DNA of 64,000 nucleotides from a bacterium (lineage in GTDB: Bacteria > Patescibacteriota > Minisyncoccia > Phycocordibacterales > UBA6899), in assembly GCA_021851895.1 (NCBI GenBank), contig JAJZQJ010000002.1:5046-69045 (forward strand), read 5' to 3'. The position numbers were made by a program, and so were the translations under genes. Numbering within the stretch: position 1 is the first letter of the stretch; the number at the start of each line of letters is the position of its first letter. Below the pieces are notes generated by a model. That model was not told the DNA's origin and made no database searches. It saw only the letters and a program-made list of their open reading frames with translations. This document shows, one piece after another, positions 1,205-47,873 of the stretch.

Positions 1205-1310
1205 TTTCCAATATCGTGGTGCATGCATGCTATACTTTGTACATGAAAAGAGTCTCGTGTGATCAGGAGGCAGGGGGAGTGCGTTTGAATTTTGGTCGAA
1301 TGCAATAGAT

Positions 1311-2510
1311 ATGAAAAAACATTCCTTATTCACACTTTTGCGTACGGCGCTCTATATAGGTGCGACGGGGTATGGAGGCCCTGCGATCATCATGCAAATG
1401 AAAAAGCACATGGTCGATGAACGCGCATGCGTCACTGAGTCAGAATTTTTTGAGACGCTCGGACTCGCACAAATACTTCCCGGATCGACTGGTGTATCGG
1501 TAATGAGTGGTCTTGGGTTTCGTAAATATGGTTTGATCGGCGGTCTTCTTGCTCCGCTTTTTTATGTCCTGCCCGCGACAATAGCGATGCTCATCCTTTC
1601 ATGGGCATATTTTCGTTATGGGCATTTGTCGATCGTATCAACATTATTTCTCGGCCTCGGCGCGCTCGTCGTTGCGTTGCTCCTCAACGCAACCATTGGT
1701 CTCGGGAGCTCGGTGTTTGGCACTCGGTGGCCTGTCGATTGGAGGGCGCCGCTCATCGCAACATTCGCTTTCGTCGAAGTTGTATTCTTTGATTTCAATA
1801 TCATCGCGATGATTCTCGTTTCTGGGCTACTCGGACTCCTTCTCTACCGTTTGCCGGGTATCCATCGTACACATGGCAAGGATGCTTTAGGTGAAGTGCT
1901 TTCTGCTCCAACGCCGACACGAAAAATCGGCTTGCAGCGGTATGATCCATTGATCATATTTGGAATTGTCTTCCTCTTTGTGACACTGCTCACCGTGCCG
2001 GCTTTTAGCAACATCGTGATGACATTTTTCGGAATCGGCAGCATTGCGTTTGGTGGTGGGTTTGCGGCGATTCCAATCATGCAACATCAGATCGTTGGTG
2101 GTATGCATTGGCTTGATCTCCCTGATTTCATTAATGGAATCGCACTTGGGCAAATCACTCCAGGACCCGTCTTCATCACGACAACTTTCGTCGGTTACCG
2201 CGTTGCGGGTATATGGGGAGGCATCGTCGCGACTTTTGCAGTATTCTTGCCGTCTATCTTTCTTATTATGGGGGTATCGAACTTTCATAAACAGGTATTG
2301 TCTTCGGTTTCCGTGCGCTCTATCGTGAGTGGTTTCCTTTCGGGATTTATCGGCCTACTCGCAGCGATCACGCTGCAGTTCGGCGGCGAGATGTTGATCT
2401 CTTGGAAGGCGTGGTACATCTTTGCGGGTTCCGTAGTGTGGATCATACTCCTTAAAAAGAATCCGGGTTGGGCGATCATTGGTGCCGTGGGGCTCGCTTT
2501 GCTGCTCTAG
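1311..2510 (+). CDS. chrA: chromate ion transporter (CHR family, two CHR domains)
   Basis: 399 aa with about 12 TM segments. Duplicated CHR signature regions (GYGGPA.., GFGGGFAAIPIM.., ITPGPV) typical of ChrA. Confidence 0.8.
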   Translation: MKKHSLFTLLRTALYIGATGYGGPAIIMQMKKHMVDERACVTESEFFETLGLAQILPGSTGVSVMSGLGFRKYGLIGGLLAPLFYVLPATIAMLILSWAYFRYGHLSIVSTLFLGLGALVVALLLNATIGLGSSVFGTRWPVDWRAPLIATFAFVEVVFFDFNIIAMILVSGLLGLLLYRLPGIHRTHGKDALGEVLSAPTPTRKIGLQRYDPLIIFGIVFLFVTLLTVPAFSNIVMTFFGIGSIAFGGGFAAIPIMQHQIVGGMHWLDLPDFINGIALGQITPGPVFITTTFVGYRVAGIWGGIVATFAVFLPSIFLIMGVSNFHKQVLSSVSVRSIVSGFLSGFIGLLAAITLQFGGEMLISWKAWYIFAGSVVWIILLKKNPGWAIIGAVGLALLL

Positions 2511-2532
2511 TACGGACTGTTATACTATCTCT

Positions 2533-3396
2533 ATGCGAAATGCACGTACAAAACATATCCTTGAGAGCATCATCCTCATTGTTGCACTCGTCTGGATAGG
2601 GCTCTATCTCCTTGCAGGGGAGAAGACCGAACTTGAGAAAGCGACCCCGTCTGCTCCAGTCAACGTCGTGCCCGTTCCTGCTGCAACGAGTTCCGTTGAT
2701 CTTCCTGCTCCAACAACAAAAACACCGCCAGTGCAGCCTATTGTGAAGGATACGGTTACGCTTGCCATGGGGGAGACCGCGGTCTTAAGCGGTATTTCTA
2801 TCACTCCCTCAGAAGTCATTGAGGACAGCAGGTGCCCACTCGGTGTTATGTGTATTCAGGCGGGGCGGGTCCGATTGCGCGCTATTTTGAATATTGGTTC
2901 GGAGACTGGTTCACCGATATTTTTAGTTGGAGAGCCCGTACTTACAGATAATGGTACGGTGACGTTGATCGGAGTAGACCCGATCAAACGACGCGATGTC
3001 GAAATCGGAAATTCTGATTACCATTTCACTTTTAAGGTAACGGATGAGCACATGGTCTACTTGAATGCGGCGACGAGTACTGTTGTTGTCGCGACACCGC
3101 AACCGGGTGCTGTTGTGGGGAAGACGTTTACTGTAAAAGGGCAAGCATGGGGGAATTGGTTCTTCGAGGGGTCATTTCCCGTCGTCCTGCGTGACCAAAT
3201 GGATACGGTTATCTCCACGGGTATCGCCAAAGCAGATACTGATTGGATGAAGGATGCGTTCGTGCCATTTACCGCGAAAATTGTCGCGCCGAATACCTAC
3301 TCAGGACCCGCGACACTTGTTTTAAAAAAGGATAATCCATCAGGCCTCCCCGCAAATGATGCTTCAGTTGCGTGGTTGGTCCATGTGGAATACTAA
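2533..3396 (+). CDS. membrane-anchored secreted protein with Pro/Thr-rich linker and C-terminal Gmad2-like immunoglobulin-like domain
   Basis: N-terminal TM anchor and a PT-rich linker. The C-terminal about 110 aa resemble the GerM/Gmad2 Ig-like domain. The ATG at 2533 is preferred over the track's TTG at 2479, which overlaps the chrA end. Confidence 0.5.
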   Translation: MRNARTKHILESIILIVALVWIGLYLLAGEKTELEKATPSAPVNVVPVPAATSSVDLPAPTTKTPPVQPIVKDTVTLAMGETAVLSGISITPSEVIEDSRCPLGVMCIQAGRVRLRAILNIGSETGSPIFLVGEPVLTDNGTVTLIGVDPIKRRDVEIGNSDYHFTFKVTDEHMVYLNAATSTVVVATPQPGAVVGKTFTVKGQAWGNWFFEGSFPVVLRDQMDTVISTGIAKADTDWMKDAFVPFTAKIVAPNTYSGPATLVLKKDNPSGLPANDASVAWLVHVEY

Positions 3397-3417
3397 ACGG
3401 CGAGCGCCGTTTTTTAT
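3395..3417 (+). terminator. intrinsic terminator
   Basis: GC hairpin ACGGCGAGCGCCGT followed by a TTTTTT run. Confidence 0.5.
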
Positions 3418-3513
3418 ACCACTTTGACAACATAAACTATATATTATGTAATTTGACAGATATAAAATATACTGTAGAAAAGGATTAGCGTTCTTTTTCT
3501 GACAGGAGGCTTC

Positions 3514-5259
3514 GTGCCGAGGCAGTTACGTTTCATACGGATTTCGAACAGTCGCAATACGTGGTATATCGTTTCGATATCGACCATATTTGCGATGATC
3601 GTTATGGCTGTCTTCGAATTCTCGCAGCGAGCCATTCATCCCGACATCACTTATACGGAGTCGCGAATCTACACCATCTTTTTTGTTGGTGCGATCGTAG
3701 GTTTGGTCGCCTATTACATCAAGCAGCGAGAAAACAGTTTTATCGCTGAAAAGAATAGGGCACAGCGCACGCTCCGTGAAAACGAAGTGCGTTTTCAAAA
3801 GTTGGTCTCGCACGTCCCAGGTGCGGTCTATCAATTCCGGCGCGACCCTTCCGGGAAATACTCGGTGCCATTCGCAACGGAGGGCCTCACCGAACTTTTT
3901 GGTTGCAGCCCGGAGGAGGTGAGAGATTCCTATGATCCGATCGCCGCAATCGTCGTTCCCGACGATCTTCCTGGCCTTCTCGAGTCGTTTGAGCTGTCTG
4001 CGGCGAGTCTTTCGATGCGCCAGCATGAATTCAGGGTAAAGATTCCGGGTCAGCCGATGAAATGGCTACTGAGTCACTCGACTCCCGAGTGTATTGAAGA
4101 TGGTAGCGTGCTTTGGCATGGTCATGTCGCCGATATCACGAAATATCGCCTCGCGGGTGAAGAGCGGATGCGCTTACAAAAACTCGAATCACTCGGAGTG
4201 CTCGCAGGGGGTATCGCGCATGATTTCAATAACATTTTGACCGCGATTATGGCCAACGCTTCTATGGCGAACCTCACCGCGCGCGACGAGGTGCAAAACG
4301 ATTCGCTTTCCGCAATCGTCAAGGCATCGGAGCGAGCCGCAGGTCTCACTCAGCAATTGCTCGCATTTGCGCGGGGTGGTATACCCTCTACGCAAGTCGC
4401 TTCGATCGCTGACGTGATAAAGGACTCTGCTGAGTTCATTCTCGGTAAGAGTTCGAAATCCGTCTGCGAGATGGATATTGCGGATGATCTTTGGTTGGTC
4501 GACATCGACGGATCGCAGATCGCACAGGTCATACAGAATCTCGTATTGAACGCCGATCAAGCGATGCCTGATGGGGGAAAGATAAAAATTCTTGCAAGGA
4601 ATGTCACTAACCCTCCATCGATCTCTGAAAAAGGGGATTTCGTTCACATCTCGGTCATTGACAAGGGTATCGGGATCCCTAAAGAATCCTTCGACAGTAT
4701 TTTCGAGCCCTACTTCACCACGAAGGGTGCGGGCTCGGGTTTGGGTCTTTCTGTCGTGTTTCGTATCATCGAGAAGCATAAAGGGAGGATCGTGGTGAGC
4801 TCGAAGCAGGGGAAGGGGAGTACGTTCTGTATCTTCTTGCCTGCGGACCATTCGAAGTCGAAGCCTGTTCCGACGATTGATGACGACGCATCTGTTTCGA
4901 AGACATACAAGATCCTTGCGATGGATGATGATCTGATGATGCAGGAAGTGCTGAATGAGGCCCTTTCGATGCTCGGACATCGTGTGACCATGACGGGGAA
5001 TGGAGATGAGGCGATCGATGCGTATCGGACGACCGCTTTCACGGGAGAGCCTTTCGATCTCGTCATCTTAGACTTGACCATCCCCGGAGGGATGGGCGGA
5101 GAAGAGACGCTTCGTCGACTCCTCGAGATCAATCCTGATCTCGTTGCGATCATTTCGAGTGGCTATGCTGACCGAATTCCAACCGGTTTCAAGGCCGCGC
5201 TCCCCAAGCCATACAACCTGAAAACCCTCAGTGGGGTGATCAGGGCTGCCATGCTGTAG
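3514..5259 (+). CDS. hybrid sensor histidine kinase (2 TM, PAS, HisKA, HATPase_c, C-terminal receiver domain)
   Basis: H-box GIAHDFNNILTAI; N/G1/G2 boxes (NLVLNADQAM, DKGIGIP, GSGLGLSV). C-terminal REC domain with DLVILDLTIPGGMGG. AGGAGG RBS 9 nt before GTG 3514. Confidence 0.8.
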   Translation: MPRQLRFIRISNSRNTWYIVSISTIFAMIVMAVFEFSQRAIHPDITYTESRIYTIFFVGAIVGLVAYYIKQRENSFIAEKNRAQRTLRENEVRFQKLVSHVPGAVYQFRRDPSGKYSVPFATEGLTELFGCSPEEVRDSYDPIAAIVVPDDLPGLLESFELSAASLSMRQHEFRVKIPGQPMKWLLSHSTPECIEDGSVLWHGHVADITKYRLAGEERMRLQKLESLGVLAGGIAHDFNNILTAIMANASMANLTARDEVQNDSLSAIVKASERAAGLTQQLLAFARGGIPSTQVASIADVIKDSAEFILGKSSKSVCEMDIADDLWLVDIDGSQIAQVIQNLVLNADQAMPDGGKIKILARNVTNPPSISEKGDFVHISVIDKGIGIPKESFDSIFEPYFTTKGAGSGLGLSVVFRIIEKHKGRIVVSSKQGKGSTFCIFLPADHSKSKPVPTIDDDASVSKTYKILAMDDDLMMQEVLNEALSMLGHRVTMTGNGDEAIDAYRTTAFTGEPFDLVILDLTIPGGMGGEETLRRLLEINPDLVAIISSGYADRIPTGFKAALPKPYNLKTLSGVIRAAML

Positions 5260-9079: not shown

Positions 9080-9466
9080 TTTGATGATATGAGGAACGAA
9101 TATGATGAGGCCTACGGCAAGTGCGATGATCGCAGTGATGAGTACTGCCCCTGCAGCAACGTCTTTGGTGTCCCTGGCATAGGGGTGTTCGTCAGGGGAG
9201 GTGAGGTCGATATCGATCTCTATTGCGGTATTGAAAGCCTCTGCGGCGATGACCATGCCGGAAGTCATGATGAGGAGTATCCATTCGATCTTCGAGATCT
9301 TGAAATACCACGCGAGGCAAAGCGCGAGCACAAAAGCAATGAGATGGATCCAGGCATTGTGTGTGCTTTTAATGAAGACCACAATGCCTCTCCCTGCATG
9401 AGTGAAGCTCTTTGCGCGCCTAACGATAGAGAAACGCTTTTTTTCTGAGAGAAGTCTTTCGTGCAT
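9077..9466 (-). CDS. dgkA: diacylglycerol kinase / undecaprenol kinase (DgkA family)
   Basis: About 129 aa with 3 TM helices. Motifs RAKSFTHAGRGI and EAFNTAIE are characteristic of prokaryotic DgkA. The start is set at ATG 9466, which lies 6 nt downstream of TGGTATAAT (leaderless pattern). The track ORF extends to 9532. Confidence 0.7.
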   Translation of the reverse strand: MHERLLSEKKRFSIVRRAKSFTHAGRGIVVFIKSTHNAWIHLIAFVLALCLAWYFKISKIEWILLIMTSGMVIAAEAFNTAIEIDIDLTSPDEHPYARDTKDVAAGAVLITAIIALAVGLIIFVPHIIK

Positions 9467-9500
9467 GCTGCTATTATACCAAAAGGAGGGGGTGTGAGAA

Positions 9501-10028
9501 TTGCTGACCGTATCGTATAATAGTGCTATCATCCTTTATATGAATACATTCTTCATTTTCGGAGCGAAGTATCTCATCTTTCTACTCGGACTACTTGCGC
9601 TCTACTGGTTTCTTAGGTCTACAAAAGATGACCAACGTAAATTATTTCGATTCGGCGTTGTTTCTCTTCCGATAACATACATATTCGGCACTATTGGGGG
9701 CATGCTCTATAATAATCCGCGTCCGTTCGTTACAGAAGGTATTACGCCGCTGATTGCACATACGGCAAATAATGGTTTTCCATCGGATCATGCGCTTGCA
9801 GCCTTCGCTATTGCAGCAGTGTTCTTTGCTGTCGATCGCAAGAAAGCAACCGTGCTATTCGCGCTCGCAGTGATTGTGGCATTCTCGCGTGTCTTTGTCG
9901 GAGTGCATCACTACCTTGATGTCGAAGCGAGCCTCGTCTTCGTCATTCTTGGATGGCAGTTCACGAGCTTCTTTTTGTCGCGTTTCGGTGATCTCATCTT
10001 TAAAAAGCCGGTCGCTCAGTCGAAGTAA
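9501..10028 (+). CDS. PAP2-family phosphatase (undecaprenyl-diphosphatase-like)
   Basis: PAP2 motifs KX6RP (NNPRPF), PSDH and SRVFVGVHHYLDV. AGGAGG RBS 11 nt before TTG 9501. Alternative ATG at 9540. Confidence 0.75.
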   Translation: MLTVSYNSAIILYMNTFFIFGAKYLIFLLGLLALYWFLRSTKDDQRKLFRFGVVSLPITYIFGTIGGMLYNNPRPFVTEGITPLIAHTANNGFPSDHALAAFAIAAVFFAVDRKKATVLFALAVIVAFSRVFVGVHHYLDVEASLVFVILGWQFTSFFLSRFGDLIFKKPVAQSK

Positions 10029-10052: not shown

Positions 10053-11727
10053 ATTCTATGAGTGTGACTTCGCCAGAGCGTGGCTCCATGCCTTCAAGGG
10101 GTATGCTGACGGAGAATGTCGTCCCTTTACCTTCTTCACTCTCGAACCAGATCTTACCGCCCCAGTCTGAGGCAAGTGTTTTTGCGAAAGAAAGTCCGAG
10201 GCCTGAACCATCTGGTGATGCGATGATCGCTTTTTCGGAACGGAAGAACTTTTCGAAGACACGCTTGCGTTCCTCTTGTGCAATGCCTATGCCGTGATCG
10301 GTCACATGAACTACTGCAGTGTCGTCGCTACGTTCAAGCGCTACATTGATCGTGTCTCCTGGGGCACCATAGAGCTGTGCATTCATAAGAAGATTCAAGA
10401 ATACCTCCCGTGCATAGTCGGGGTCCAACGTGATCATCGGAATAGTATCTCCTGCAATATGCACGGTCTGTTTTTTATTGTTGAGGCGGGGGAGGAGTTC
10501 GGTGACTGCATGTTCGATAACCGTCTTTATGTCGAGAGGAACAGGATTGATGCTGACGCGATTCGTTTCAACACGTGCGGTGCGAAGGAGAAAGTTCACG
10601 AGATTGGTCATCTGCGCGAGACTTGTCTCGATTTGCGAGACATATTGCTGCTGTGAGGTATTCAGTGTTCCTGCGTCGCCGCTTTGAAGCATCTCAATGA
10701 ACCAGCGCATCGTCGTGAGCGGGGTTCGCAATTGGTGTGATGCTGTCGATATGAAATTCGCTCGTGCTTCATCGAGTGCGAGATCGTCGCTGATATTACG
10801 AAAGGTGATGATGACGCCTTTGCGTTCTTGCGTTTGCTCATTAATGATCGGTGCTGCGATACTTGAGGCATAAATGATCCTTCCGTCTTTGCGGACACTC
10901 GAGAGCACGGGGAGGTTGACTGTTTTATCGATATTGACGATCGCGTCACGAAATTCCTGAGAGAGCTCATTACCCTCGCGATCACGCAAGTGCAGCGCGT
11001 CAACGGGTTTTTTGTTGAAGAGGTCTTCTTTCTTCTCTCCGGTCATGTTGACCGTAACGTCGTTCACGATCTTAATGAGGCCATTTTCGTCGAGCACGAT
11101 GACACCTTCACCGATGGACGAGACAAGCTGGTGATAGGTTGCGCGTTCTTCCTCTGCAGTCTTTGCATACATGTTCGCGTTCTCGAGTGCTTTCGCGAGA
11201 TCATTAGCCTGCCGCGTGATCTTCTCTTCGGATTCACGTGCATCCTCAAGGAGGTTGAGCATCGCGCGCTTCGTATCCTCAAGCTCTGCAACGGTACCTT
11301 CTTCGGTCATGAGACGTACGCTCGCCTCATCGGGATGCGCGAGATAGAGGATGATGTCTGAAGGGGAGTCAGTGAGCCGCTCTTGATCTGTGTAGTCTCC
11401 GAATGTTGACTCGGTGATCTTGAGTTTTGGAAAATGTCGCTGCTTGTACGAAAGCAGTCCAACAACGTCCTCGCGTTGTTCGTCGTCGGGATACACGATG
11501 ACTTCCTTTTGTCCGTTTTCAGCGGCGAGCGTAAGATAGAGTTCCGCGAGCTTTATATAGGTCGCTCTCGTGTCATCATAGGCGATATGAATGAACGGTG
11601 TATTCGTTTTTGCGAGGAGGCCATGGGAGACCGAAAGCACGCCAACGATCCTCGAGAAGATGGGCATGACGTGGGGAGCGAACGCACCTCCGAAAATGGC
11701 ATGTTTGATGATGATATTTTTCGCCAT
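10051..11727 (-). CDS. sensor histidine kinase (N-terminal KdpD/Usp-like domain, coiled coil, PAS, HisKA, HATPase_c)
   Basis: H-box FISTASHQLRTPLTTM. G boxes (DHGIGIAQEE, GSGLGLSFAK). The start is set at ATG 11725-11727, preceded by TGCTATACT + 9 nt (leaderless pattern). The track start 11766 lies inside the upstream terminator hairpin. Confidence 0.75.
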   Translation of the reverse strand: MAKNIIIKHAIFGGAFAPHVMPIFSRIVGVLSVSHGLLAKTNTPFIHIAYDDTRATYIKLAELYLTLAAENGQKEVIVYPDDEQREDVVGLLSYKQRHFPKLKITESTFGDYTDQERLTDSPSDIILYLAHPDEASVRLMTEEGTVAELEDTKRAMLNLLEDARESEEKITRQANDLAKALENANMYAKTAEEERATYHQLVSSIGEGVIVLDENGLIKIVNDVTVNMTGEKKEDLFNKKPVDALHLRDREGNELSQEFRDAIVNIDKTVNLPVLSSVRKDGRIIYASSIAAPIINEQTQERKGVIITFRNISDDLALDEARANFISTASHQLRTPLTTMRWFIEMLQSGDAGTLNTSQQQYVSQIETSLAQMTNLVNFLLRTARVETNRVSINPVPLDIKTVIEHAVTELLPRLNNKKQTVHIAGDTIPMITLDPDYAREVFLNLLMNAQLYGAPGDTINVALERSDDTAVVHVTDHGIGIAQEERKRVFEKFFRSEKAIIASPDGSGLGLSFAKTLASDWGGKIWFESEEGKGTTFSVSIPLEGMEPRSGEVTLIE

Positions 11728-11754
11728 TACTATACTAGTATAGCATGAGGTGAT

Positions 11755-11785: not shown

Positions 11786-12309
11786 TAGCAGTGATCGTTT
11801 GGATTCACGTAATTGAGGAAGAATTCATAGTGAGGAAGGGGGAGTGATTCATAGCGAAAGAGACCGGTACCGAGATTGCCGTCATCGTAGAGTTTGTCAT
11901 AGATGACTGCGATATCCGATGGCATTGTGATGCCGATATAGTAATAGTTGCTCGGAGTGGGGTTGCCAGGGGTGCCCGTATAGCCGAGATAGTAGTCTGT
12001 TCCGAATGGGGTCTTTGGCCAAGGATAGTATTCTTCTACGGCGACTTTTTCATGTGCATCGGTCATATCGTTTGCTGCCATATCGCTATCGATGCACGGG
12101 GATATGGTGTGTTGTGTACGATAGGTTTCCACGGCACGCTCAATCTGTGCGAAGTCTGCGCTCATACGCGCGACAAAAGCACGTTCGCGAGCGCGCATGA
12201 GGGCAGCGAGTACGACTGAAGAGAGGAGGGCGATCACTGAAATAACAACGAGAAGCTCTACGAGCGTGAAGCCACGAGATCGATTGCTGTAGGTGGAGGG
12301 CAAACGCAT
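11785..12309 (-). CDS. prepilin-type N-terminal cleavage/methylation domain protein (type IV pilin / pseudopilin-like)
   Basis: Class III signal MRLPSTYSNRSRG|FTLVELLVVISVIALLSSV. The ATG at 12307-12309 is preferred over the track's TTG at 12318, which lies inside the promoter motif. Confidence 0.8.
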   Translation of the reverse strand: MRLPSTYSNRSRGFTLVELLVVISVIALLSSVVLAALMRARERAFVARMSADFAQIERAVETYRTQHTISPCIDSDMAANDMTDAHEKVAVEEYYPWPKTPFGTDYYLGYTGTPGNPTPSNYYYIGITMPSDIAVIYDKLYDDGNLGTGLFRYESLPLPHYEFFLNYVNPNDHC

Positions 12310-12342
12310 GGTATACAAAGTATAGCATGAAATAAATATATG

Positions 12343-12372: not shown

Positions 12373-13260
12373 TCAAAGGATACGCGGATGTTGCTCGATG
12401 AACGCACGCATTTCCTCAGGAGTGCGACAGCTGTGGCGGATTTCGCGCCACGGACCGAACTCGGTCGGGTGCTCTCTGGTCGTTTCGCGAACGCGTTCGA
12501 AGTAGAAGGGGTTGTTCGCCTTCGGGTTGTCTTCGTCGAGTTCATCCACGTGGTAGTGAATGATCGCACCATTATCCGGAATGCGGTCGCGCCAGAGGTA
12601 TTTGCCGTTGGTGTCGAGACTCGTTTTGTTCTCCAAGACGGACATACACGCGAGGATGAAATCTCCATGCGTGACGATGAGCGGGCTCTTGAACTTGCGT
12701 GCATGAACATCGCGCAAGATGTCGCCAGCACGTCCCTGAGTGACGACGAACGGTTCACCATTCGGCGGAACCCAAGTGAAGATGTCTTCGATCATGCGAA
12801 TTTCGATGACCTGTCCATCAGGTAGTCTGAGTTCGCGCGTGATCTCGCCCTCGCGTCGCTTGCGATGTTCCTCAACGAGATCCATATGCTTCCAGCCGGG
12901 CTGCTCGAGGTCGCCCCAGAAACGCTCGCGAATGCGACCGGTGACCTGCCATCCGAGGTAGCGGTCCTCTGGTTTGAAGTAGCCACCCTTTTCGTTGAAG
13001 ATGAGGGCGGTCTCGATGGCGCGGTCCATGTCAGAGCAGTAGCACCAATCGAAGTAGGGGAATTGCGAGCGAAGGAATTCTCCGATCGCAACGCCCATGT
13101 CTGCGCCTTCTTGCGTGAGGCGGTACTGCGGATGGGGGACATGTCGAAGGAGTTCCCCCATGGTGAAGGTGTGGCTCTCCACGATCTCGTGAATCGCTTT
13201 GTTCGCGACAGAGGGAAGATGACGGACGAGGATGAGATCACGAGCAGGACGTTTGCACAT
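12373..13260 (-). CDS. histidine phosphatase superfamily protein (phosphoglycerate-mutase-like), GC-rich gene
   Basis: LILVRH.. near the N-terminus, CYCSDMDRAIETA and a C-terminal IVTHGDFI. AAGGAG RBS 7 nt upstream of the ATG. The RH is followed by L rather than G, so activity is uncertain. Confidence 0.5.
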   Translation of the reverse strand: MCKRPARDLILVRHLPSVANKAIHEIVESHTFTMGELLRHVPHPQYRLTQEGADMGVAIGEFLRSQFPYFDWCYCSDMDRAIETALIFNEKGGYFKPEDRYLGWQVTGRIRERFWGDLEQPGWKHMDLVEEHRKRREGEITRELRLPDGQVIEIRMIEDIFTWVPPNGEPFVVTQGRAGDILRDVHARKFKSPLIVTHGDFILACMSVLENKTSLDTNGKYLWRDRIPDNGAIIHYHVDELDEDNPKANNPFYFERVRETTREHPTEFGPWREIRHSCRTPEEMRAFIEQHPRIL

Positions 13261-13429
13261 ACGTGCGCTCCTTGTAGGGAAGAACGTTATCTACGTTGAA
13301 ACTACCGTAAAATCTTGGAAAAGCAAGCATGTCTCGATCCTATTCTCATTGTCACTTTCGATTGCTGTAGCTACTTTTCCATGCTAGCATCGTTGCAGAA
13401 TAATACTTTTTGTTCCTTGAGGAGGAAAC

Positions 13430-14878: not shown

Positions 14879-14888
14879 GGAGGATGAG

Positions 14889-35032: not shown

Positions 35033-35118
35033 CATGATAACGGGGCAGTGCCCCGTTTTTGCTTGCTCTCTGCATTTTACTCCTGTACTATCACCTTAGA
35101 GTATTTGAAGGAGCTACT

Positions 35119-36690: not shown

Positions 36691-36708
36691 CTGCTATAAT
36701 TTGATAGT

Positions 36709-37086
36709 ATGAAAAAATTCAAAATAACATTCTGGACCACTACGATGATCATCGCGCTCTTTGAGGGCGGTGGCTCCATACTGACGTATGGTTCGCCGAT
36801 GGCGGTCGCGGGAATAACGCATCTCGGTTATCCTGTTTACTTCGTAACGCTGATCGGTGCCTTCAAGGTACTTGGTGCACTCGCGCTCGTCATTCCGCAG
36901 GTGCCGGTTCGGGTGAAGGAGTGGGCATTTGCAGGTTTCGGTATCGATTTCATTTCTGCATCGGTCAGTATTGCGGTGGTCGACGGACTTGGCTTCGGCG
37001 CGTTCTTCCCGCTCATCTTCCTCGGTCTCCTTATTGCATCAAATGTAAGCCATCACAAACTGCTCGATGTGCAAAAAGCACAGTAA
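36709..37086 (+). CDS. DoxX family membrane protein
   Basis: 125 aa, 4 TM, DoxX-like. ATG lies 8 nt after TGCTATAAT. Confidence 0.65.
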   Translation: MKKFKITFWTTTMIIALFEGGGSILTYGSPMAVAGITHLGYPVYFVTLIGAFKVLGALALVIPQVPVRVKEWAFAGFGIDFISASVSIAVVDGLGFGAFFPLIFLGLLIASNVSHHKLLDVQKAQ

Positions 37087-37112: not shown

Positions 37113-37470
37113 ATTGGAACAACCCTAGCTTGAAGACGACGAGAAGGTATAGTGATGCAAGCAAGAAGAATACCGCCATTCCGAGTCCTATCGCTTTATA
37201 TGCACCGAATTTTGGCGCAAGTATGATCACGGTGATCATGTAGGGTACCCAAGATACAAATGTTCCATATAGTACGAATTTCGCATTCTGGCTCACTGCG
37301 AGACCGCCTCCCGTTTGTCCAATGAAGATATAAGAGATGAGGGTGAAGACGGGCATGAGTGCGAGGAAGCCGGAGAGGAGTCGTGAACCGCTCTGATCAA
37401 GGACGACGATGAGCGTCGTGAAGAATCCACCGGAAATGAAATAGATGAGCATGTTGGTCATGTGGTGCAT
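37111..37470 (-). CDS. hypothetical membrane protein
   Basis: About 119 aa from MHHMTNM..; 4 TM. The track's N-terminal extension overlaps the decarboxylase gene. Confidence 0.4.
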   Translation of the reverse strand: MHHMTNMLIYFISGGFFTTLIVVLDQSGSRLLSGFLALMPVFTLISYIFIGQTGGGLAVSQNAKFVLYGTFVSWVPYMITVIILAPKFGAYKAIGLGMAVFFLLASLYLLVVFKLGLFQ

Positions 37471-37516
37471 TATAGCAAAGAAAAACCCGCGGTTGAAACC
37501 GTGGGTGTGGTAGTGT

Positions 37517-38704
37517 TCACTTCGGCAGAATCGCAGTCCGAAGCGGAGCGAATCCGTTGAAGTTGACGGCGGCGTAGCTTGCCGTGTAGGCGCCCGTCGA
37601 GAGCAGGTAGATGCGGTCGCCTTCCTTGAGGGAGGCGGGAGCCGCATACAGATCCTTCTGGTACATGATGTCCGCGCTGTCGCAGGTGGGGCCCGCGATG
37701 ATCACATCGCCCCAATCCTCGCCACTTTCGTGTGCGTGATCGGGGAAGTAGATCGGGTAGCGGATGGCTTCGCCCTCAGTCTCGGCGAGTCCGCCGAAGC
37801 GGCCGATGTCGAGGAAGAGCCAGCGTACGGGATCGTTGTTCGACTTCTTGCTGATGCGGACGACCTCGGTGCAAAGCACACCAGCATCACCCGCGAGGGA
37901 GCGGCCGGGCTCGACGATGATGTCGAGGTCGTCGATCTTGAAGTCCTCGCGGAGGTACTGCATGACCGAGGACCCGTACTCTTCCTGGGTCTGCGTCGGC
38001 TTGAGGTACTCTGCGGGGAATCCTCCGCCGATGTTAATGCACTTCAGCGCGATGTCCTTCTCATGGAGGAGGGCGTCGAACAGGTGCTTCACCTGGGCGA
38101 GAGCAGTGTCCCACTGGCCGATGTCGCGCTGCTGGGAGCCGACATGGAACGCGATGCCGTACGGCACGAGTCCCAATTCTTTGGCCTTCACAGCGAGGCG
38201 GAACGCCATGCCGGGATGGCAGCCGAACTTGCGGGAGAGGGGCCAGTCGGCACCCTTTCCGTCGAGGATGATCCTGAAGTTGACCTTGGCGCCCGGGGCG
38301 CACTCGGCCAGGTTGATGAGGTCCTCCTCGGAGTCAGAGGTGTACAGCGTGACCCCATGCGTGAACGCGAACGCGATGTCCGCGCGCTTTTTGATGGGGT
38401 TGCCATAGCTGATCTTCTCACCGGTGATGCCGAGCGCGAGCAGCTGCTCGATCTCGGGCCGCGAGGCGACGTCGAAATTCGAGCCGCGCTTCGCGATCGA
38501 GGTGATCACCTCGTCCATCGGGCACGCCTTGATGGCGTAGAAAATGCGCGTGCCCGGCATCGAGCTCACCAGACGATCGTAGGCCGCATTGATGCGGTCA
38601 AGGTCGATGATGAGCAGCGGCGTCTGTTGCGTCTGCGCGAACTTCTGGATGTTCTCGAAGTCGAGCTGCGGAAGCAGCTGGGCCGCGCGGTTCTTGTTCT
38701 CCAC
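37517..38704 (-). CDS. PLP-dependent decarboxylase, fold III (ornithine/lysine/diaminopimelate decarboxylase family), strongly GC-rich
   Basis: FYAIKACP (PLP-lysine motif), a GGG loop (INIGGGFP) and C-terminal beta-domain motifs (GPTCDSAD..GAYT). Confidence 0.8.
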   Translation of the reverse strand: MENKNRAAQLLPQLDFENIQKFAQTQQTPLLIIDLDRINAAYDRLVSSMPGTRIFYAIKACPMDEVITSIAKRGSNFDVASRPEIEQLLALGITGEKISYGNPIKKRADIAFAFTHGVTLYTSDSEEDLINLAECAPGAKVNFRIILDGKGADWPLSRKFGCHPGMAFRLAVKAKELGLVPYGIAFHVGSQQRDIGQWDTALAQVKHLFDALLHEKDIALKCINIGGGFPAEYLKPTQTQEEYGSSVMQYLREDFKIDDLDIIVEPGRSLAGDAGVLCTEVVRISKKSNNDPVRWLFLDIGRFGGLAETEGEAIRYPIYFPDHAHESGEDWGDVIIAGPTCDSADIMYQKDLYAAPASLKEGDRIYLLSTGAYTASYAAVNFNGFAPLRTAILPK

Positions 38705-38850
38705 TGGAGCTCCTTGTAGGGGAAAGAGCGGACAAGGAAATCTTGTCGTTCGGGGGATACAGTAGCATATATTTCAAAACATGCAAGTTGAAATATGTCA
38801 AGAAATGGGGAAAACATAACCCTATCTCTCCGCGATGCTATACTAAGTAT

Positions 38851-39336
38851 ATGATAAAACAAGCAGTATTTGCTGGCGGATGTTTTTGGGGTCTCGAGGA
38901 GCTCATTCGGAGACAAAAAGGGGTGGTGGATACCGAGGTTGGTTATGCGGGCGGGACAGAACCAGATCCTACGTATGAGCATCATCCTGGTTATGCTGAG
39001 TCGGTTGCGATCTCCTATGATGATACGAAGACCTCATATCGAGAATTACTCGATTTCTTCTTTCGCATACATGATCCAACAACACCGAACAGGCAAGGAG
39101 GAGACATCGGATCCTCTTATCGCTCTGCGATTTTCTATGGTGATGAGATAGAAAAGAAAGAGGCTGAAGATTTTATTCTGCTCGTCAATAAATCGGGGAG
39201 ATGGAAAGATCCCGTGGTGACAACGCTTGAACCCCTTACAAAATTTTACAAAGCAGAGGAGTATCACCAGGATTATCTCGAGAAGAATCCAGGCGGATAT
39301 ACTTGCCACTTTATTCGTTTTGGTAGCTATCTTTGA
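38851..39336 (+). CDS. msrA: peptide-methionine (S)-S-oxide reductase
   Basis: GGCFWG active-site motif. ATG lies 6 nt after TGCTATACT. The track's upstream extension is unlikely. Confidence 0.9.
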
Positions 39337-39722: not shown

Positions 39723-39748
39723 GTTGGAAGCCCTTACTCTTATGTCAT

Positions 39749-40150
39749 ATGCTGAAAGATTTCAAACAATTCTTGCTTCGTGGTAATGTCGTCGATCTTG
39801 CCGTCGGTGTCGTTGTCGGAGCTTCGTTTGGCGCCGTGGTCACTGCGCTTGTCGCTGATGTGCTCACACCCTTTATTGCGGCCATTGCAAAAGTGCCCGA
39901 TTTTTCTGGTATTGCATTCACGCTTAATGGGAGTAAGTTTCCCATCGGCCATTTCATGAATGCGCTTGTGTCATTTATCTTGGTATCGACCGCAGTATTC
40001 TTTTTTGTCGTTAAGCCGATGAATCATCTCATTGCTCGGTCCCGAAAGGAGGTTCCTGCTGATCCGACGACAAAAAAGTGCACAGAATGTCTTAGTGAGA
40101 TCCCTATTGAAGCAAAGCGATGTGCACATTGTGCACAGGTGCAAATATGA
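39749..40150 (+). CDS. mscL: large-conductance mechanosensitive channel with a C-terminal CxxC..CxxC extension
   Basis: N-terminal FKQFLLRGNVVDLAVGVVVGASFG. Two TM helices. The tail CTECLSEIPIEAKRCAHCAQ has 4 Cys. Confidence 0.85.
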   Translation: MLKDFKQFLLRGNVVDLAVGVVVGASFGAVVTALVADVLTPFIAAIAKVPDFSGIAFTLNGSKFPIGHFMNALVSFILVSTAVFFFVVKPMNHLIARSRKEVPADPTTKKCTECLSEIPIEAKRCAHCAQVQI

Positions 40151-43797: not shown

Positions 43798-43817
43798 TCA
43801 GGTGTATACTATGAATA

Positions 43818-44171
43818 ATGTCTATGAAAAAATATTTTCAAGAAATTCGCGAATATTTAAATGACAACCCTGAGGGCTATTGGTTCAAAGCGAAGCTCTA
43901 TGGTTGGGGCTGGACTCCTGCACGTAAGGAAGGTTGGTGGACGATAGGCATATTCATTTTGCTCATCATAGTGCTCTCCATGCAACTACAGCCACATATG
44001 GAATTACGGCAGATGCTCCCGACATTCTTTCTCCCATTGTTCTTACTTATCATCGCATTGACGGTGATCATGTTTGCAAAAGGTGAGCGACCTCGCTGGC
44101 AATGGGGTGTACCAAAGAAAAAAAGTAACCGATCAACTGATTCAGAAAATAACGAAAATACCCCTGTATAA
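43818..44171 (+). CDS. small hypothetical membrane protein
   Basis: 117 aa, 2 TM. ATG lies 7 nt after TGTATACT. Confidence 0.4.
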   Translation: MSMKKYFQEIREYLNDNPEGYWFKAKLYGWGWTPARKEGWWTIGIFILLIIVLSMQLQPHMELRQMLPTFFLPLFLLIIALTVIMFAKGERPRWQWGVPKKKSNRSTDSENNENTPV

Positions 44172-45144: not shown

Positions 45145-45195
45145 GTTTGCAAAAGGAGCATTCGTGCTCTTTTTGTTTTGCGCTATACTATGTAT

Positions 45196-45501
45196 ATGAA
45201 CCTACTTGAACTACAAGAATGGGTCAGGGCTGATTGGGAACAGCATTCACCTGTGAGGCCCGATCCACATATGCAGCTGCTTTACCTCTTTGAAGAGCTC
45301 GGTGAAATGGCCGAGGCGATCCGTCAGAGATCGGGGCAAAAAGAACATGCGACACACACGACTGATCTTGGAGAAGAGATGGGCGATGTGCTCGTCGCAC
45401 TTGCAACGGTTGCAAATAATTATCAGGTCGATCTTGAAGAGGCTTTCGAGAAGGCGAGGGCGAAGATCGAAGCACGACATAAGTTGGGCACTGAAGCATA
45501 A
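45196..45501 (+). CDS. MazG-like nucleotide pyrophosphohydrolase (single-domain)
   Basis: EELGEMAEA...EEMGDVL..LA motifs. ATG 45196 lies downstream of GCTATACT. Confidence 0.6.
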   Translation: MNLLELQEWVRADWEQHSPVRPDPHMQLLYLFEELGEMAEAIRQRSGQKEHATHTTDLGEEMGDVLVALATVANNYQVDLEEAFEKARAKIEARHKLGTEA

Positions 45502-45523: not shown

Positions 45524-46374
45524 TTTGGAAAGATATCGCGAAGCTCCGTTGAGTCGAAGAATGCCTTGCCAAGTTCACCATAGGTATAATCTCTTCCGCC
45601 GGTTGTGATGATGGCGCCACCCGGAGTTGGGTGATCATGAGGCGTAGAGTGTTTAAAACCGATGTTGAAGAGGGTGACGATCGTTCCAGGATCTTTTTCG
45701 ATATCGAATCCTGATCTTTTCCATTGCGCTGCGATCTCTTTTATGAAGAGTGCGGTATAGAGGTAGGAGTAACGGTGATTCTTTGGATCAGTCAGGCGAT
45801 CATAGAGCGTCTTGTCGTGGTCTTCTCCAGGCGCATAGGCGATAAGTGGCGCATATTCGGGGCCTGGATAGAAGGGGGAGGTGGGGTCGTTCGCATATTG
45901 TTCTATCTCGAGCGCAGTATCCTGTTTGATGCCCGAGACACCGAGGGAGAATTTTGATAGTGAACCAAGAATCTTGAGTGGCTCAAAATAGCGCTTGAAT
46001 ACCTCACGCTCCGCGGTGAAGAATCGGGTTTGCTCGGGTACGACGATCGCAGCAATGAGTCGTGGTGATACTCCTACGTCCTTCGCAGTGTCTTCAATGA
46101 TCTGCTTATCTTTCGTGAGCCCACCACTTACCACCTGCCATTCACGCGTTTCGTTCCAGTTGCAGATAGTTGCGCCATTTGTACATGATCGTTCATCCTG
46201 ACCAGTTCTCGTATTCGACGAGCTTGTCGCAAAGAAATCGTTTCGCGCGTTTATCGATCCTCGTACGTTAAAAATGCCGAACTGCATGCCGACGAAAACG
46301 AATGAAAATATAAAACCGATGAGTGCGAACATGAGTATGATCGCGATGCCGACAAGTCGAAGATTTTTTCGCAT
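45520..46374 (-). CDS. membrane-anchored hypothetical protein
   Basis: 284 aa from MRKNLRLVGIAIILMF.. The ATG lies 7 nt downstream of TTGCCC-17-TGCATAAT (leaderless pattern). The track's 103-aa N-terminal extension looks non-coding. Confidence 0.45.
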   Translation of the reverse strand: MRKNLRLVGIAIILMFALIGFIFSFVFVGMQFGIFNVRGSINARNDFFATSSSNTRTGQDERSCTNGATICNWNETREWQVVSGGLTKDKQIIEDTAKDVGVSPRLIAAIVVPEQTRFFTAEREVFKRYFEPLKILGSLSKFSLGVSGIKQDTALEIEQYANDPTSPFYPGPEYAPLIAYAPGEDHDKTLYDRLTDPKNHRYSYLYTALFIKEIAAQWKRSGFDIEKDPGTIVTLFNIGFKHSTPHDHPTPGGAIITTGGRDYTYGELGKAFFDSTELRDIFPN

Positions 46375-46470
46375 CGGAGTGATTATGCAATATTCGGTGA
46401 TTTTGGGCAAGCGAGACGTGCGGGTGTCGTCGTGTGCTATACTATTGTCATATAGGTAACATGAAATGAT

Positions 46471-46818
46471 ATGGAGCAGGGTAAAACACACATAGGGTTG
46501 GGCGTGCACGAAGGGAGTGTGCTCCACGGCAAAAGAGGGGTACTTCTTCTCGTCAGCTCGTTGTTCATACTCTCTTTGCTCCTTACGGTCATTGGCTTGT
46601 TGTTCTCTGGAGGTGGGATATGGGCACTCGTGTTCATCGTTCTTTGGCTCTTGTTTCTGGTGTACCTTTTTCGATTCTCTCAAGGATATTTCGGTCTATG
46701 GAAGATCTCGCTTGTTTTTTTGGTGTATGTCATATTGCTTTCGTTTTTGTTTTTCTCTGCACTTTCACACAATACTCCGGCGGGTGGCGTGCAAGTATCA
46801 TCGGCCACTCGACCTTGA
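46471..46818 (+). CDS. small hypothetical membrane protein
   Basis: 115 aa, very hydrophobic. Weak support. Confidence 0.3.
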   Translation: MEQGKTHIGLGVHEGSVLHGKRGVLLLVSSLFILSLLLTVIGLLFSGGGIWALVFIVLWLLFLVYLFRFSQGYFGLWKISLVFLVYVILLSFLFFSALSHNTPAGGVQVSSATRP

Positions 46819-46879
46819 GTGCTGGTTGATAAAATATGATTTTCGAGTAATCTGGTGAAAGCTCGTTCTTGGAGATTCT

Positions 46880-47425
46880 ATGTACTTCGTCATTGGTTCA
46901 ACGAACCCTTCGAAGATCTGCGCACTGACCGAAGTTCTTGTTGAGTACGATGAATTCAAGCATGCCTCACTGAGCTCCGTGAAGACGGCGTCAGGTGTCT
47001 CGGAGCAGCCCATGTCGCTCGAAGAGATTTGCCTTGGTGCGAGGAATAGGGCGTATGAAGCTTTTCATTCAAGGGCGGGCGCCGCTGATTACGGGGTCGG
47101 CTTAGAGAGCGGTCTCATCTTGGTGCCTGGGACAAAGACGGGCATGATGGCCACCTCGGCATGCATGATCTATGACGGGGTAGTGTTTGCTCCCGGTCTT
47201 TCTTCTGCCTTCGAATGTCCGGCAAAGGTCATTAGGCTCGTTAAGGAAGGCGGCTTAGATCTCAATCGCGCTTTCCACGATGCGGGATTGAGCAATAATC
47301 TCAAACTTGGAAACGAAGGTGGGGCGATCGGAGAGCTCTCTAAGGGGCATGTGAGTCGTTCGCAGTACATGATGCAAGCGATCCGTATGGCGCTCATTCA
47401 TCTGCAGAATCCCGAATTGTATTGA
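46880..47425 (+). CDS. inosine/xanthosine triphosphatase (YjjX family, non-canonical purine NTPase)
   Basis: N-terminal VIGSTNPSK and overall YjjX-like sequence. Confidence 0.7.
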   Translation: MYFVIGSTNPSKICALTEVLVEYDEFKHASLSSVKTASGVSEQPMSLEEICLGARNRAYEAFHSRAGAADYGVGLESGLILVPGTKTGMMATSACMIYDGVVFAPGLSSAFECPAKVIRLVKEGGLDLNRAFHDAGLSNNLKLGNEGGAIGELSKGHVSRSQYMMQAIRMALIHLQNPELY

Positions 47426-47477
47426 CCCAAGCGGCCGCTTGAAGGCCGCTTTTCAATTGCATGGTATAATATTCTAT

Positions 47478-47873
47478 ATGAAAGGATATGTAACCAACAT
47501 CGAAGAGCTCACTCGAGAGAACGAGGATTTTCGTCGAGTACTCTATACGAGTCATAATGGACAGCTCGTCCTCATGACGCTGCCTCGTGGTGTGGAGATC
47601 GGCGAGGAGATCCATGATGAGTCGGATCAGTTCTTCCGCATCGAAGAGGGAGAGGGTAAGGTTATCATCAATGATACTCCTCACGACATAAGTGATGGAA
47701 GTGTTGTCATCGTGCCAAAGGGTGCGAAACATAATGTCATCAATACAGGAGTAGGACCACTTCGTCTCTATTCGCTCTATATGCCACCACATCATCGCGA
47801 TGGTGTCGTGCATCACAGCAAGGCTGCTGCGGAAGAAGACGAAGAGCATTTCGATGGGGTGATCTCAGAGTAA
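47478..47873 (+). CDS. cupin domain protein
   Basis: Two-motif cupin core (G(X)5HxH-like EIGEEIHDESDQFF ... VIVPKGAKHNVINTG). ATG lies 7 nt after TGGTATAAT. Confidence 0.6.
   Translation: MKGYVTNIEELTRENEDFRRVLYTSHNGQLVLMTLPRGVEIGEEIHDESDQFFRIEEGEGKVIINDTPHDISDGSVVIVPKGAKHNVINTGVGPLRLYSLYMPPHHRDGVVHHSKAAAEEDEEHFDGVISE

Follow-up and report, generated by a model that had tools for sequence, protein, structure and literature searches.

The sequence analyzed here is a 64-kb stretch (hereafter the window) of contig JAJZQJ010000002.1 from a bacterium of the Patescibacteriota, metagenomic in origin and with a GC content of 49%. One of its proteins has an identical counterpart in ENA and Logan assemblies. 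Many of its genes begin a few nucleotides downstream of a hexamer resembling the -10 element of a promoter, an arrangement predicted to give leaderless mRNAs. We define d as the number of nucleotides between the last base of the -10-like hexamer and the ATG. About one third of the genes of the window and most heads of transcription units carry this box next to their ATG. The first-pass annotation had placed such hexamers immediately upstream of the ATGs of 11 named genes; all 11 starts were verified, each with a -10-like hexamer at d = 6-9. About 11 further sites were added by a scan that allowed TAYAMT as well and by judging weaker hexamers by eye. Two of them are putative leaderless upstream open reading frames (ORFs).

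At three of the 11 originally cited genes the box stands at d = 9: (i) a type IV pilin gene (12309-11785; site 12307..12327 (-), TGC TATACT ttgtatacc ATG); (ii) the adjacent gene for a PAS histidine kinase (HK, 11727-10051; 11725..11745 (-), TGC TATACT agtatagta ATG); and (iii) a gene named HNH in that annotation (16283-16594; 16265..16285 (+), TGG TATACT ttgtatagt ATG). The doxX gene (36709-37086; 36692..36711 (+), TGC TATAAT ttgatagt ATG) has d = 8. A distance of 7 nt was found for a cupin gene (47478-47873; 47462..47480 (+), TGG TATAAT attctat ATG), a gene encoding a 117-aa membrane protein (43818-44171; 43802..43820 (+), GTG TATACT atgaata ATG), and a 284-aa gene whose hexamer is CATAAT (46374-45520; 46372..46390 (-), TTG CATAAT cactccg ATG). 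The remaining four have d = 6, namely dgkA (9466-9077; 9464..9481 (-), TGG TATAAT agcagc ATG), msrA (38851-39336; 38836..38853 (+), TGC TATACT aagtat ATG), a mazG-like gene (45196-45501; 45181..45198 (+), CGC TATACT atgtat ATG), and a gene for a DUF5652 small membrane protein (32677-32913; 32662..32679 (+), GTG TATAAT tacatt ATG). The hexamers had been described as extended by TGn, which holds for seven of the 11; the triplet is CGC at the mazG-like gene, GTG at 32677 and 43818, and TTG at 46374.

The added gene starts with d = 6 comprise a Gmad2-domain gene absent from the earlier list (2533-3396; 2518..2535 (+), TGT TATACT atctct ATG), a flavodoxin-like gene (32012-32611; 31997..32014 (+), GTT TACAAT gttctt ATG; terminator 31950-31976), a GT4 glycosyltransferase gene with an imperfect hexamer and thus a weaker call (33009-34166; 32994..33011 (+), TGT TATACA tagcac ATG; terminator 32912-32935), an Ocnus/Janus-family gene (35497-35874; 35482..35499 (+), GTG TACACT atactc ATG; terminator 35454-35471), and a hypothetical 238-aa gene, again a weaker call (55832-56548; 55817..55834 (+), GTG TATGAT tgcgtt ATG). 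Those with d = 7 are a PAP2 phosphatase gene divergent from dgkA (9540-10028; 9524..9542 (+), TGC TATCAT cctttat ATG), radC (20416-21093; 20400..20418 (+), TGA TATTAT tgtgaac ATG), and a gene for a GlpM-like membrane protein (37461-37111; 37459..37477 (-), TGC TATAAT gcaccac ATG). The gene mscL (39749-40150; 39732..39751 (+), CCT TACTCT tatgtcat ATG) has a weak hexamer at d = 8.

Motifs were counted on both strands, and 100 dinucleotide-preserving shuffles of the whole window served as control. The search found 20 matches to TATAMT-N6-9-ATG (M = A/C), compared with 2.84 ± 1.77 in the shuffles, none of which (0/100) reached 20. The extended form TGNTATAMT occurs 16 times and is followed by an ATG at d = 6-9 in 12 cases, where ~1.4 would be expected from the density of ATG; nine of these 12 boxes open ORFs of at least 75 codons (~0.3 expected). 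At all 22 listed sites the start codon is ATG, and a pyrimidine directly precedes it in 13 of the 16 window sites first tabulated. The TGn extension, present at 12 of the 22 sites, is frequent at leaderless boxes, not universal.

We regard it as quite improbable that the boxes are by-products of AT-rich, terminator-dense intergenic regions, with the real promoters lying further upstream or in the preceding gene and giving ordinary leaders. The intergenic regions are AT-rich, a local bias that whole-window shuffles do not model, and a few box-ATG pairs, in front of antisense or short ORFs, are clearly non-functional. The distance histogram is nevertheless sharply peaked, with 20 pairs at d = 6-9 (6, 4, 4, and 6 at 6, 7, 8, and 9 nt), 4 at d = 0-5, and 2 at d = 10-12, so that the bins 2-5 and 10-12 are empty or nearly empty. 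Furthermore, only ATG follows the box. When the window and 47 other Patescibacteria loci were taken together, long ORFs starting at d = 6-9 exceeded expectation by 108 for ATG and by about zero for GTG/TTG, whereas starts led by a Shine-Dalgarno (SD) site showed an excess of 89 for ATG and 19 for GTG. A promoter that merely happened to lie close to a gene would be indifferent to the start codon, and the restriction to ATG therefore points to 5′-terminal initiation. Two comparisons with other genomes also speak against accidental boxes: a syntenic relative retains both box and spacing amid diverged intergenic sequence, and the peak is missing from AT-rich Bacteroidota loci.

The syntenic relative (L085) is a 21-kb locus of GCA_035583355.1 (labelled Candidatus Paceibacterota, a name for the phylum Minisyncoccota/Patescibacteria) whose ornithine decarboxylase (OrnDC) is 82% identical to that of the window. 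Gene order is kept, with msrA-msrB-mscL-DUF5667-FMN_bind-ApbE-RnfD on one side and OrnDC, GlpM-like, and DoxX on the other. The msrA promoter reads TGCTATACT-6-ATG in both, mscL has TACTCT at d = 8 in both, and at doxX a 22-nt block (TCTGCTATAATTTGATAGTATG) is identical while the flank diverges. At the GlpM-like gene, d is 7 in the window and 8 in L085, where the box is TGATATAAT (TGA TATAAT). The small membrane protein at 43818 is preceded by GTGTATACT at d = 7 and in L085 by GTGTATACT (GTG TATACT) at d = 8, there after its own terminator. Further upstream, the intergenic sequences in the msrA and doxX alignments were unalignable or contained a different terminator hairpin. About 14 of the 27 genes of L085 have a -10 box 6-9 nt from the ATG. 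A clear SD was found there only on the three GC-richest genes (OrnDC, 0.59; 258-aa, 0.57; 110-aa, 0.56), and a weak AAGGA was seen on a NadR-like gene (GC 0.53).

Beyond L085, homologues of msrA at 75% identity or less belonged mostly to metagenome-assembled genomes of Candidatus Saccharibacteria and other Patescibacteria. These homologues, the affiliation of L085, and a group I intron in a tRNA-Asn gene of the window all identify the organism as a member of the Patescibacteria. The msrA box was also present in L009, L050, L061, L062, L064, L069, and L077. In L078, the doxX orthologue has the same arrangement and the cupin orthologue is preceded by TGA TATAAT atatat ATG. A metagenome scan with HK for orthologous pilin/HK promoters returned two distant relatives only and yielded no footprint. 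Across the 47 other Patescibacteria loci and the Bacteroidota controls, boxes at d = 5-9 were compared with the background per 5-nt bin. Saccharibacteria loci gave 75 (background 21.8) and loci of other members of the Candidate Phyla Radiation (CPR) 31 (background 7.8), whereas the Bacteroidota loci, with 6 against 7.4, displayed no peak. Counts of SD and leaderless starts in individual loci were too noisy to separate lineages. Judged from the pooled promoter predictions, the trait is lineage-wide and not peculiar to this contig.

The position of the boxes also agrees with what is known of transcription initiation. According to the MASTER study (cited in PMC12641261), sigma-70 RNA polymerase reportedly selects a start 7 to 10 bases past the -10 element, with a preference for the 7th base and for a purine that follows a pyrimidine. 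Expressed as d, this start range is 6-9 with a peak at 6; the window data match it, with the spacing reported to peak at d = 6, the optimum of the RNA polymerase. At 49 sites with d = 6 in the other Patescibacteria loci, T (59%) and G (65%) occupy positions -15/-14, and a pyrimidine precedes the ATG in 85%. The logo of these 49 sites showed no -35 signal. Generic scans of the window for a -35/-10 consensus were not enriched (22 vs 17.8; 29 vs 23.5) and were uninformative, as would be expected of promoters without a -35 element. Terminator-like sites, in turn, were enriched in the window (31 vs 18.8 and 33 vs 16.6). A hairpin with a T-run directly precedes 12 of 16 boxes, and the remaining boxes lie in divergent intergenic regions. 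Where the box directly follows a terminator, the new transcript must begin in the remaining 20-30 bp.

TGnTATAMT was also found 26-40 nt upstream of three genes with leaders, namely (i) a GGDEF gene (30220..30260 (+), TGG TATAAT, 29 nt, ATG 30258; without SD, same promoter consensus); (ii) hyp704 (58657..58694 (-), TGG TATACT, 26 nt, ATG 58659; SD-less, with the inverted pair TATACT-N7-AGTATA); and (iii) the SD-led kinase gene 3514, to which a TATACT promoter at 3468 would give a leader of ~40 nt. The box therefore appears to be a general promoter of the organism, merely placed next to the ATG in the leaderless cases. In contrast, it is absent from 12 of 13 closely spaced downstream genes, the exception being mscL, whose weak box is kept in L085. 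The lack of a box at internal operon genes rules out a general ribosome-binding motif. It is accordingly scarcely credible that the box is a TA-rich, SD-independent ribosome-binding or translation-enhancer element on leadered mRNAs, as in the Bacteroidota (group B): it does stand at a distance typical of ribosome-binding sites too, and these genomes make little use of SD sites in general (an SD is present on 5-22% of closely spaced downstream genes), but a motif of group B is found ahead of every gene, internal ones too (PMC6028130), TGn and the consensus TATAAT are elements contacted by RNA polymerase, most boxes directly follow terminators so that the transcript must start there, the Bacteroidota controls lack the peak at d = 6-9, and a box 26-40 nt upstream of a gene cannot be its ribosome-binding site.

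We propose that the housekeeping promoters of this organism function without a -35 element, frequently have an extended -10, and follow the consensus (TGn)TATA(A/C)T. In ~20 transcription units of the window, the hexamer would end 6-9 nt before the ATG and the transcript would begin at the A of the ATG or, at the three d = 9 promoters, 2-3 nt before it. The ribosome, together with initiator tRNA, would then bind the 5′-terminal AUG directly, no SD pairing being needed. A typical unit would thus consist of a terminator hairpin, a T-run, the -10 box, 6-9 nt, and the ATG, all within an intergenic region of 50-65 bp. Most of the listed sites very probably give mRNAs with leaders of 0-3 nt. The leaderless mRNAs postulated in the first-pass annotation are supported in that spacing, restriction to ATG, lack of SD, position at unit heads, and conservation all agree, and each prediction tried at the level of the sequence held.

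Several points weigh against this interpretation. Some of the added sites have imperfect hexamers (TATACA, TACTCT, CATAAT, TATGAT, and TATCAT) and are weaker calls. A consensus box at 6558 (-) lies antisense within a gene and opens an ORF of only 36 codons, and the TATAMT-ATG pairs at 16391 (-), 32651 (-), 35879 (-), and 54861 (+) open short or antisense ORFs; the motif alone thus does not prove that a site is used. In the comparison loci, genes were called only roughly, as long ORFs. We infer the transcript start at or near the AUG from spacing alone, and the d = 9 promoters of pilin, HK, and HNH lie at the edge of the start range and may give leaders of 2-3 nt. Should the polymerase keep its optimal position there, the leaders would be ACC, AGU, and GUA.

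A second group of genes initiates differently. For 60 curated starts, the 20 nt upstream were paired with ACCUCCUUA as the presumed anti-SD. Duplex energies were bimodal, with 12 genes at -6.4 to -13.5 kcal/mol (mean -9.8) and a mean of about -0.7 for the other 48. These 48 starts pair even more weakly than random window sequence (mean -2.5; 11.6% of background at -6 or below). Among 19 leaderless genes the mean was -0.7 kcal/mol and none reached -6; the 11 originally cited genes, said to lack an SD, ranged from -3.8 to +1.8 kcal/mol. Conversely, the eight genes to which the first-pass annotation had assigned strong SD sites (610, 3514, the gene at 12373 with ATG 13260, 13430, 14889, 34256, 35119, and 62411) all have them, with -7.7 to -13.5 kcal/mol.

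The SD-led genes on the plus strand, each given with SD, spacing, start codon, and duplex energy in kcal/mol, are (i) 599..612 (GGGAGG, 5 nt, ATG 610; gene GC 0.63; -11.5); (ii) 3504..3516 (AGGAGG, 4 nt, GTG 3514; hybrid histidine kinase/response regulator; -10.3); (iii) 13419..13432 (GAGGAGG, 4 nt, ATG 13430; TldD, GC 0.58; -12.2); (iv) 14877..14891 (GAGGAGG, 5 nt, ATG 14889; PmbA, GC 0.58; -12.1); (v) 34245..34258 (AAGGAGG, 4 nt, ATG 34256; hypothetical, 258 aa, GC 0.55; -13.5), whose orthologue in L085 is likewise GC-rich and SD-led; (vi) 35108..35121 (AAGGAG, 5 nt, ATG 35119; hypothetical, 109 aa; -8.0); (vii) 46870..46882 (TGGAG, 5 nt, ATG 46880; NTPase_I-T, GC 0.53; -6.4); (viii) 60230..60244 (AAGGAG, 3-6 nt, ATG 60239 or 60242; M3 peptidase, GC 0.53; -8.5); and (ix) 62401..62413 (GGGAGG, 4 nt, ATG 62411; -11.3), a second M3 peptidase gene that runs off the window. 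On the minus strand they are (x) 13258..13273 (AAGGAG, 7 nt, ATG 13260; histidine phosphatase, GC 0.57; -7.7); (xi) 38702..38715 (AAGGAG, 5 nt, GTG 38704; OrnDC, GC 0.62, GC at third codon positions (GC3) 0.86; -7.7), with the same SD and high GC in L085 and L086; and (xii) 55615..55629 (AAGGAG, 6 nt, ATG 55617; hypothetical, 216 aa, GC 0.55; -8.7).

SD use was clearly associated with base composition. The ten SD-led genes lying whole in the window with a settled frame (i.e. without 35119 and 62411) have a mean GC of 56.5% and a GC3 of 66%, compared with a mean GC of 47.6% for the 19 leaderless genes and 48.0% for 21 other SD-less genes. SD-led and leaderless genes did not overlap in GC (10 vs 19 genes; Mann-Whitney U = 190 of 190, p = 1.5e-5). 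These 12 genes, with canonical GGAGG/AAGGAG at 3-7 nt, would form a compositionally foreign set. The most economical reading is that they are foreign and entered an ancestor shared by the window organism and L085. A very recent transfer into this strain was rejected, as the same state is found in the syntenic L085. That the link between SD and GC instead marks a separate expression class of native genes, tuned for example for high or regulated translation, we consider unlikely. Such a class would fit the situation in L085, where OrnDC and the hypotheticals of 258 and ~110 aa are likewise rich in GC and preceded by an SD, a state stable over ~18% protein divergence and hence not a very recent acquisition. 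The set is functionally miscellaneous, however (OrnDC, TldD/PmbA, histidine phosphatase, M3 peptidases, and hypotheticals), and its GC3 reaches 0.86 within a 49% GC genome. More distant OrnDC homologues in CPR-like contigs match the GC of their own genome and have no SD, and in the other Patescibacteria loci the GC of SD-led ORFs departs from that of leaderless ones by no more than 0.01-0.02.

Two initiation regimes had been proposed for this DNA. Leaderless and SD-led genes indeed coexist, but a third, large class without SD brings the number of regimes to three. It consists of 13 downstream genes lying 2-26 nt after the preceding stop codon (2, 2, 3, 3, 3, 3, 4, 7, 10, 12, 20, 22, and 26 nt) and of at least six leadered genes with essentially no SD. 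None of the 13 curated internal genes of the window has an SD. The junction of msrA and msrB reads TGA-TC-ATG, and gaps of 2-4 nt recur in the MarR-HlyD-MFS, type I restriction-modification, and FMN_bind-ApbE-RnfD operons. In an automated count, an SD was present on 11% of closely spaced downstream genes in the window, 22% in Saccharibacteria loci, 5% in other CPR loci, 3% in Bacteroidota loci, and 40% in Chloroflexi/actinobacterial loci. The SD-less downstream genes could be reached through re-initiation by the terminating ribosome.

Short ORFs at three promoters fit the same scheme. A box at 1228..1245 (+) (TGC TATACT ttgtac ATG), with a terminator at 1176-1196 just upstream, opens a 21-codon ORF (1243-1308, MKRVSCDQEAGGVRLNFGRMQ) whose stop lies 2 nt before the ATG of ChrA at 1311 (TAG-AT-ATG). 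Similarly, the box at 17579..17597 (-) (TGT TATAAT catacta ATG) opens an 11-codon ORF (17581-17546, MRMWSKSALVH) with its stop 2 nt before the ATG of DUF378 at 17543 (TAA-TA-ATG). ChrA and DUF378 would be fed by these short leaderless ORFs. At 46435..46473 (+), TGC TATACT is followed after 17 nt by the mini-ORF ATG AAA TGA (46461-46469) and, 1 nt further, by the ATG of a 115-aa membrane protein (46471). The upstream ORFs of ChrA and DUF378, together with the ATG-AAA-TGA-T-ATG arrangement, suggest that a ribosome entering at a 5′ AUG may pass to the next gene by re-initiation. A more far-reaching and rather doubtful extension is that native initiation is essentially SD-independent, with leaderless first cistrons, re-initiated downstream ones, upstream ORFs as ribosome loaders, and SD sites only on foreign GC-rich genes. 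If so, an SD would mark imported DNA, and the scheme would fit the reduced ribosomes of the CPR and the loss of the anti-SD in some of its members.

Placing starts at the boxes also revises gene models. In the ORF track at least eight starts in the window are over-extended or misplaced, an error already suspected in the first-pass annotation, and the shorter starts agree with Pfam domain limits and the N-termini of homologues. In the short models, the PMSR domain of MsrA begins at residue 4 and homologues align from residue 1, position 1 of the Flavodoxin_2 profile falls on residue 2 of the flavodoxin-like protein, and UPF0758_N begins at residue 4 of RadC. DgkA attains its normal 129 aa, with DAGK_prokar at residues 23-123, and the pilin keeps an intact prepilin leader, with the N_methyl motif at residues 9-34. 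An alternative HK start, ATG 11766, falls within the upstream terminator hairpin. Homologues of the gene at 16283 in L039 and L011 begin at the same position, as do cupin homologues at the same residue as the window model. As read from its sequence, the N-terminus of the 46374 product (MRKNLRLVGIAIILMFALIG) resembles a signal or membrane anchor (signal-like MRKNLRLVGIAIILMF).

A longer box, TG(C/G)TATACTTTGTA, had been noted at 1228, 16265, and 12327-12314 (-), i.e. upstream of the ChrA upstream ORF, HNH, and pilin, and is present at all three. In the window, TATACTWWGTA has 6 matches (0.02 expected) and the inverted pair TATAC-N0-10-GTATA also 6 (0.19 expected), all at promoters and at ~5 times the density in other loci. 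The pilin promoter (terminator 12366-12347) contains the palindrome CATGCTATAC-TTT-GTATACCATG with arms matching at 9/10, and the HK promoter TGCTATACT/AGTATAGTA with arms at 8/9. Compared with 122 control leaderless promoters of other genomes, of which one reaches 8, only these two were exceptional. A palindrome common to all leaderless promoters was rejected for this reason, and also because no consensus emerged for the discriminator in the CPR-wide logo. The TGCTATACTTTGTA box does not occur at random and has partial palindromic symmetry, but it is no general property of promoters. At msrA (38839-38851), TATACT-A-AGTATA forms a perfect palindrome with a second TATACT on the minus strand. 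The latter faces the SD-led OrnDC gene 134 nt away, the only one of the six inverted pairs to face a gene, and one symmetric element may serve both msrA and OrnDC.

The abundance of TATACTWWGTA and TATAC-N0-10-GTATA at promoters and the near-perfect arms at pilin and HK might suggest that the long box TG(C/G)TATACTTTGTA, together with TATAC-N0-7-GTATA, provides operators for a dimeric regulator overlapping the -10 element and start, which would co-regulate at least pilin and the adjacent HK. We think this improbable: just 2-4 of ~22 promoters are strongly palindromic, the genes concerned (pilin, HK, HNH, msrA, mazG, and the ChrA upstream ORF) have no evident common function, and the discriminator and palindrome of msrA are not kept in L085, where the pilin promoter is not palindromic either; no candidate regulator was found. 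The palindromes could also be symmetric -10 pairs firing both ways, the box could be a favoured discriminator sequence WWGTAT, or an RNA hairpin could hide the AUG in read-through transcripts. Predicted folds were -11.2 kcal/mol for HNH (z -3.9) and -6.8 for doxX (z -4.1); msrA and cupin do not fold. A separate inverted repeat, TTAGATAA-N5-TTATCTAA, lies at 5360-5380 (+) just upstream of the MarR-family gene (ATG 5388) and is likely an autoregulatory operator.

Other features adjoin the boxed genes. The gene at 16283-16594 (+) is free-standing and lies ~115 nt upstream of a tRNA-Asn(GUU) gene (16707-17036 (+)) that is split at anticodon position 35/36 by a full-length group I intron (16741-16998; Rfam RF00028, 74.5 bits). 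ARAGORN reported no tRNA in the window because of this intron. A group I intron at position 35/36 of tRNA-Asn was recently published as typical of Patescibacteria, and such introns encode HNH homing endonucleases (PMC13011429); an assignment as tRNA-His was rejected, since the published insertion site gives tRNA-Asn(GUU). Pfam found no domain match in the protein encoded at 16283-16594. Its homologues in L039 (~8598-9102) and L011 (~4570-5089), with 55-56% identity, are located within the same intron of the tRNA, directly downstream of the 5′ exon. The tRNA 3′ end, GAATCCTGCCGCCGGAGC at 17020-17037, is repeated 210 nt downstream at 17230-17247, resembling the duplication of an attachment site. 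The repeat is followed by a segment of 60% GC and then by a low-GC type I restriction-modification cluster, and the segment after the tRNA may be an island inserted there. At 18090-20177 (60% GC), two long ORFs overlap on opposite strands (695 aa on the plus, 625 aa on the minus strand); the 695-aa ORF would encode a product rich in R, D, E, G, and V, for which Pfam returned no match. The restriction-modification operon (HsdM, HsdS, HsdR; 20416-30169, 40-47% GC) also holds a half-size HsdS, a Bro-N protein, RadC, and a YgjP metallopeptidase, tightly packed and all without SD. Upstream of doxX, a gene resembling an IS200/Y1 transposase (35964-36644) lies between two copies of the hairpin AATGGGGTC(A/T)GACCCCATT, at 35884-35902 and 36670-36688. 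In L085 the transposase is missing and another terminator precedes doxX, and the gene looks like an insertion in the window lineage.

If the promoters are used as proposed, gene callers trained on SD sites would over-extend or misplace starts in these genomes, and recognition of the box would correct the N-termini of proteins as well as operon maps across thousands of metagenome-assembled CPR genomes. The boxes would be ready-made compact promoters for new Saccharibacteria genetic systems, and the confinement of SD sites to GC-rich genes could serve as a simple marker of acquired genes. Patescibacteria have small ribosomes that lack several ribosomal proteins, and the anti-SD is absent in some of them. 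Heavy use of leaderless initiation and re-initiation would tie these traits together and would add a large, deep-branching group to the lineages using a mode of initiation thought to be ancestral.

The architecture and mechanism are already known from other bacteria; only the lineage is new. Our literature search found no description of leaderless genes in Saccharibacteria, CPR, or Patescibacteria, and the phylum is not included in either of two surveys of initiation signals. For TM7x, 188 transcription starts were used in a promoter study in which 'leaderless' occurs only in a cited title (PMC12641261), and a TM7x transcriptome preprint does not mention promoters or leaders. The architecture predicted for the window agrees with leaderless transcriptomes that have been mapped experimentally in mycobacteria and Deinococcus. 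Mycobacteria also use GTG at leaderless starts, whereas here only ATG follows the box. Frequent leaderless transcription has been described in Mycobacterium tuberculosis, Streptomyces, Corynebacterium, and Deinococcus deserti (PMC6028130; PMC3898074; PMC4633059). In the GeneMarkS-2 classification, a Pribnow box 6-8 nt upstream of the start codon defines group C, to which many genomes of the Actinobacteria (90%) and Deinococcus-Thermus (97%) belong (PMC6028130). As in group C, the leaderless genes of the window lack an SD, SD-led genes occur in the same genome, and ORF callers over-extend starts. Unlike group C actinobacteria, which are high in GC and have a degenerate TANNNT, the window is of medium GC and has a clean TATA(A/C)T with frequent TGn. 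The lineage also differs (Patescibacteria/CPR), the SD sites occur on genes of atypical composition only, and internal genes of operons have none.

The leaderless mRNAs of Escherichia coli and its phages, lambda cI from PRM and tetR of Tn1721, start at the A of the AUG, and this 5′-terminal AUG is recognized by the ribosome with no need of SD pairing (PMC10491246, PMC9031893). These are isolated cases in an SD-dominated genome, in contrast to about one third of the genes and most unit heads here. The short ORFs at leaderless-type promoters before a longer gene recall the leaderless upstream ORFs and small proteins of mycobacteria (PMC4633059). There are two such cases here, and in both, unlike in mycobacteria, the stop lies exactly 2 nt before an SD-less main ATG, a geometry that suggests ribosome hand-over rather than attenuation. 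Finally, the native genes share a very low SD use with the Bacteroidota (group B) and with Parcubacteria lacking an anti-SD, a motif missing from the 16S rRNA of some members of that group (PMC9297842). The Bacteroidota differ from the window in that they show no -10 box next to their start codons.

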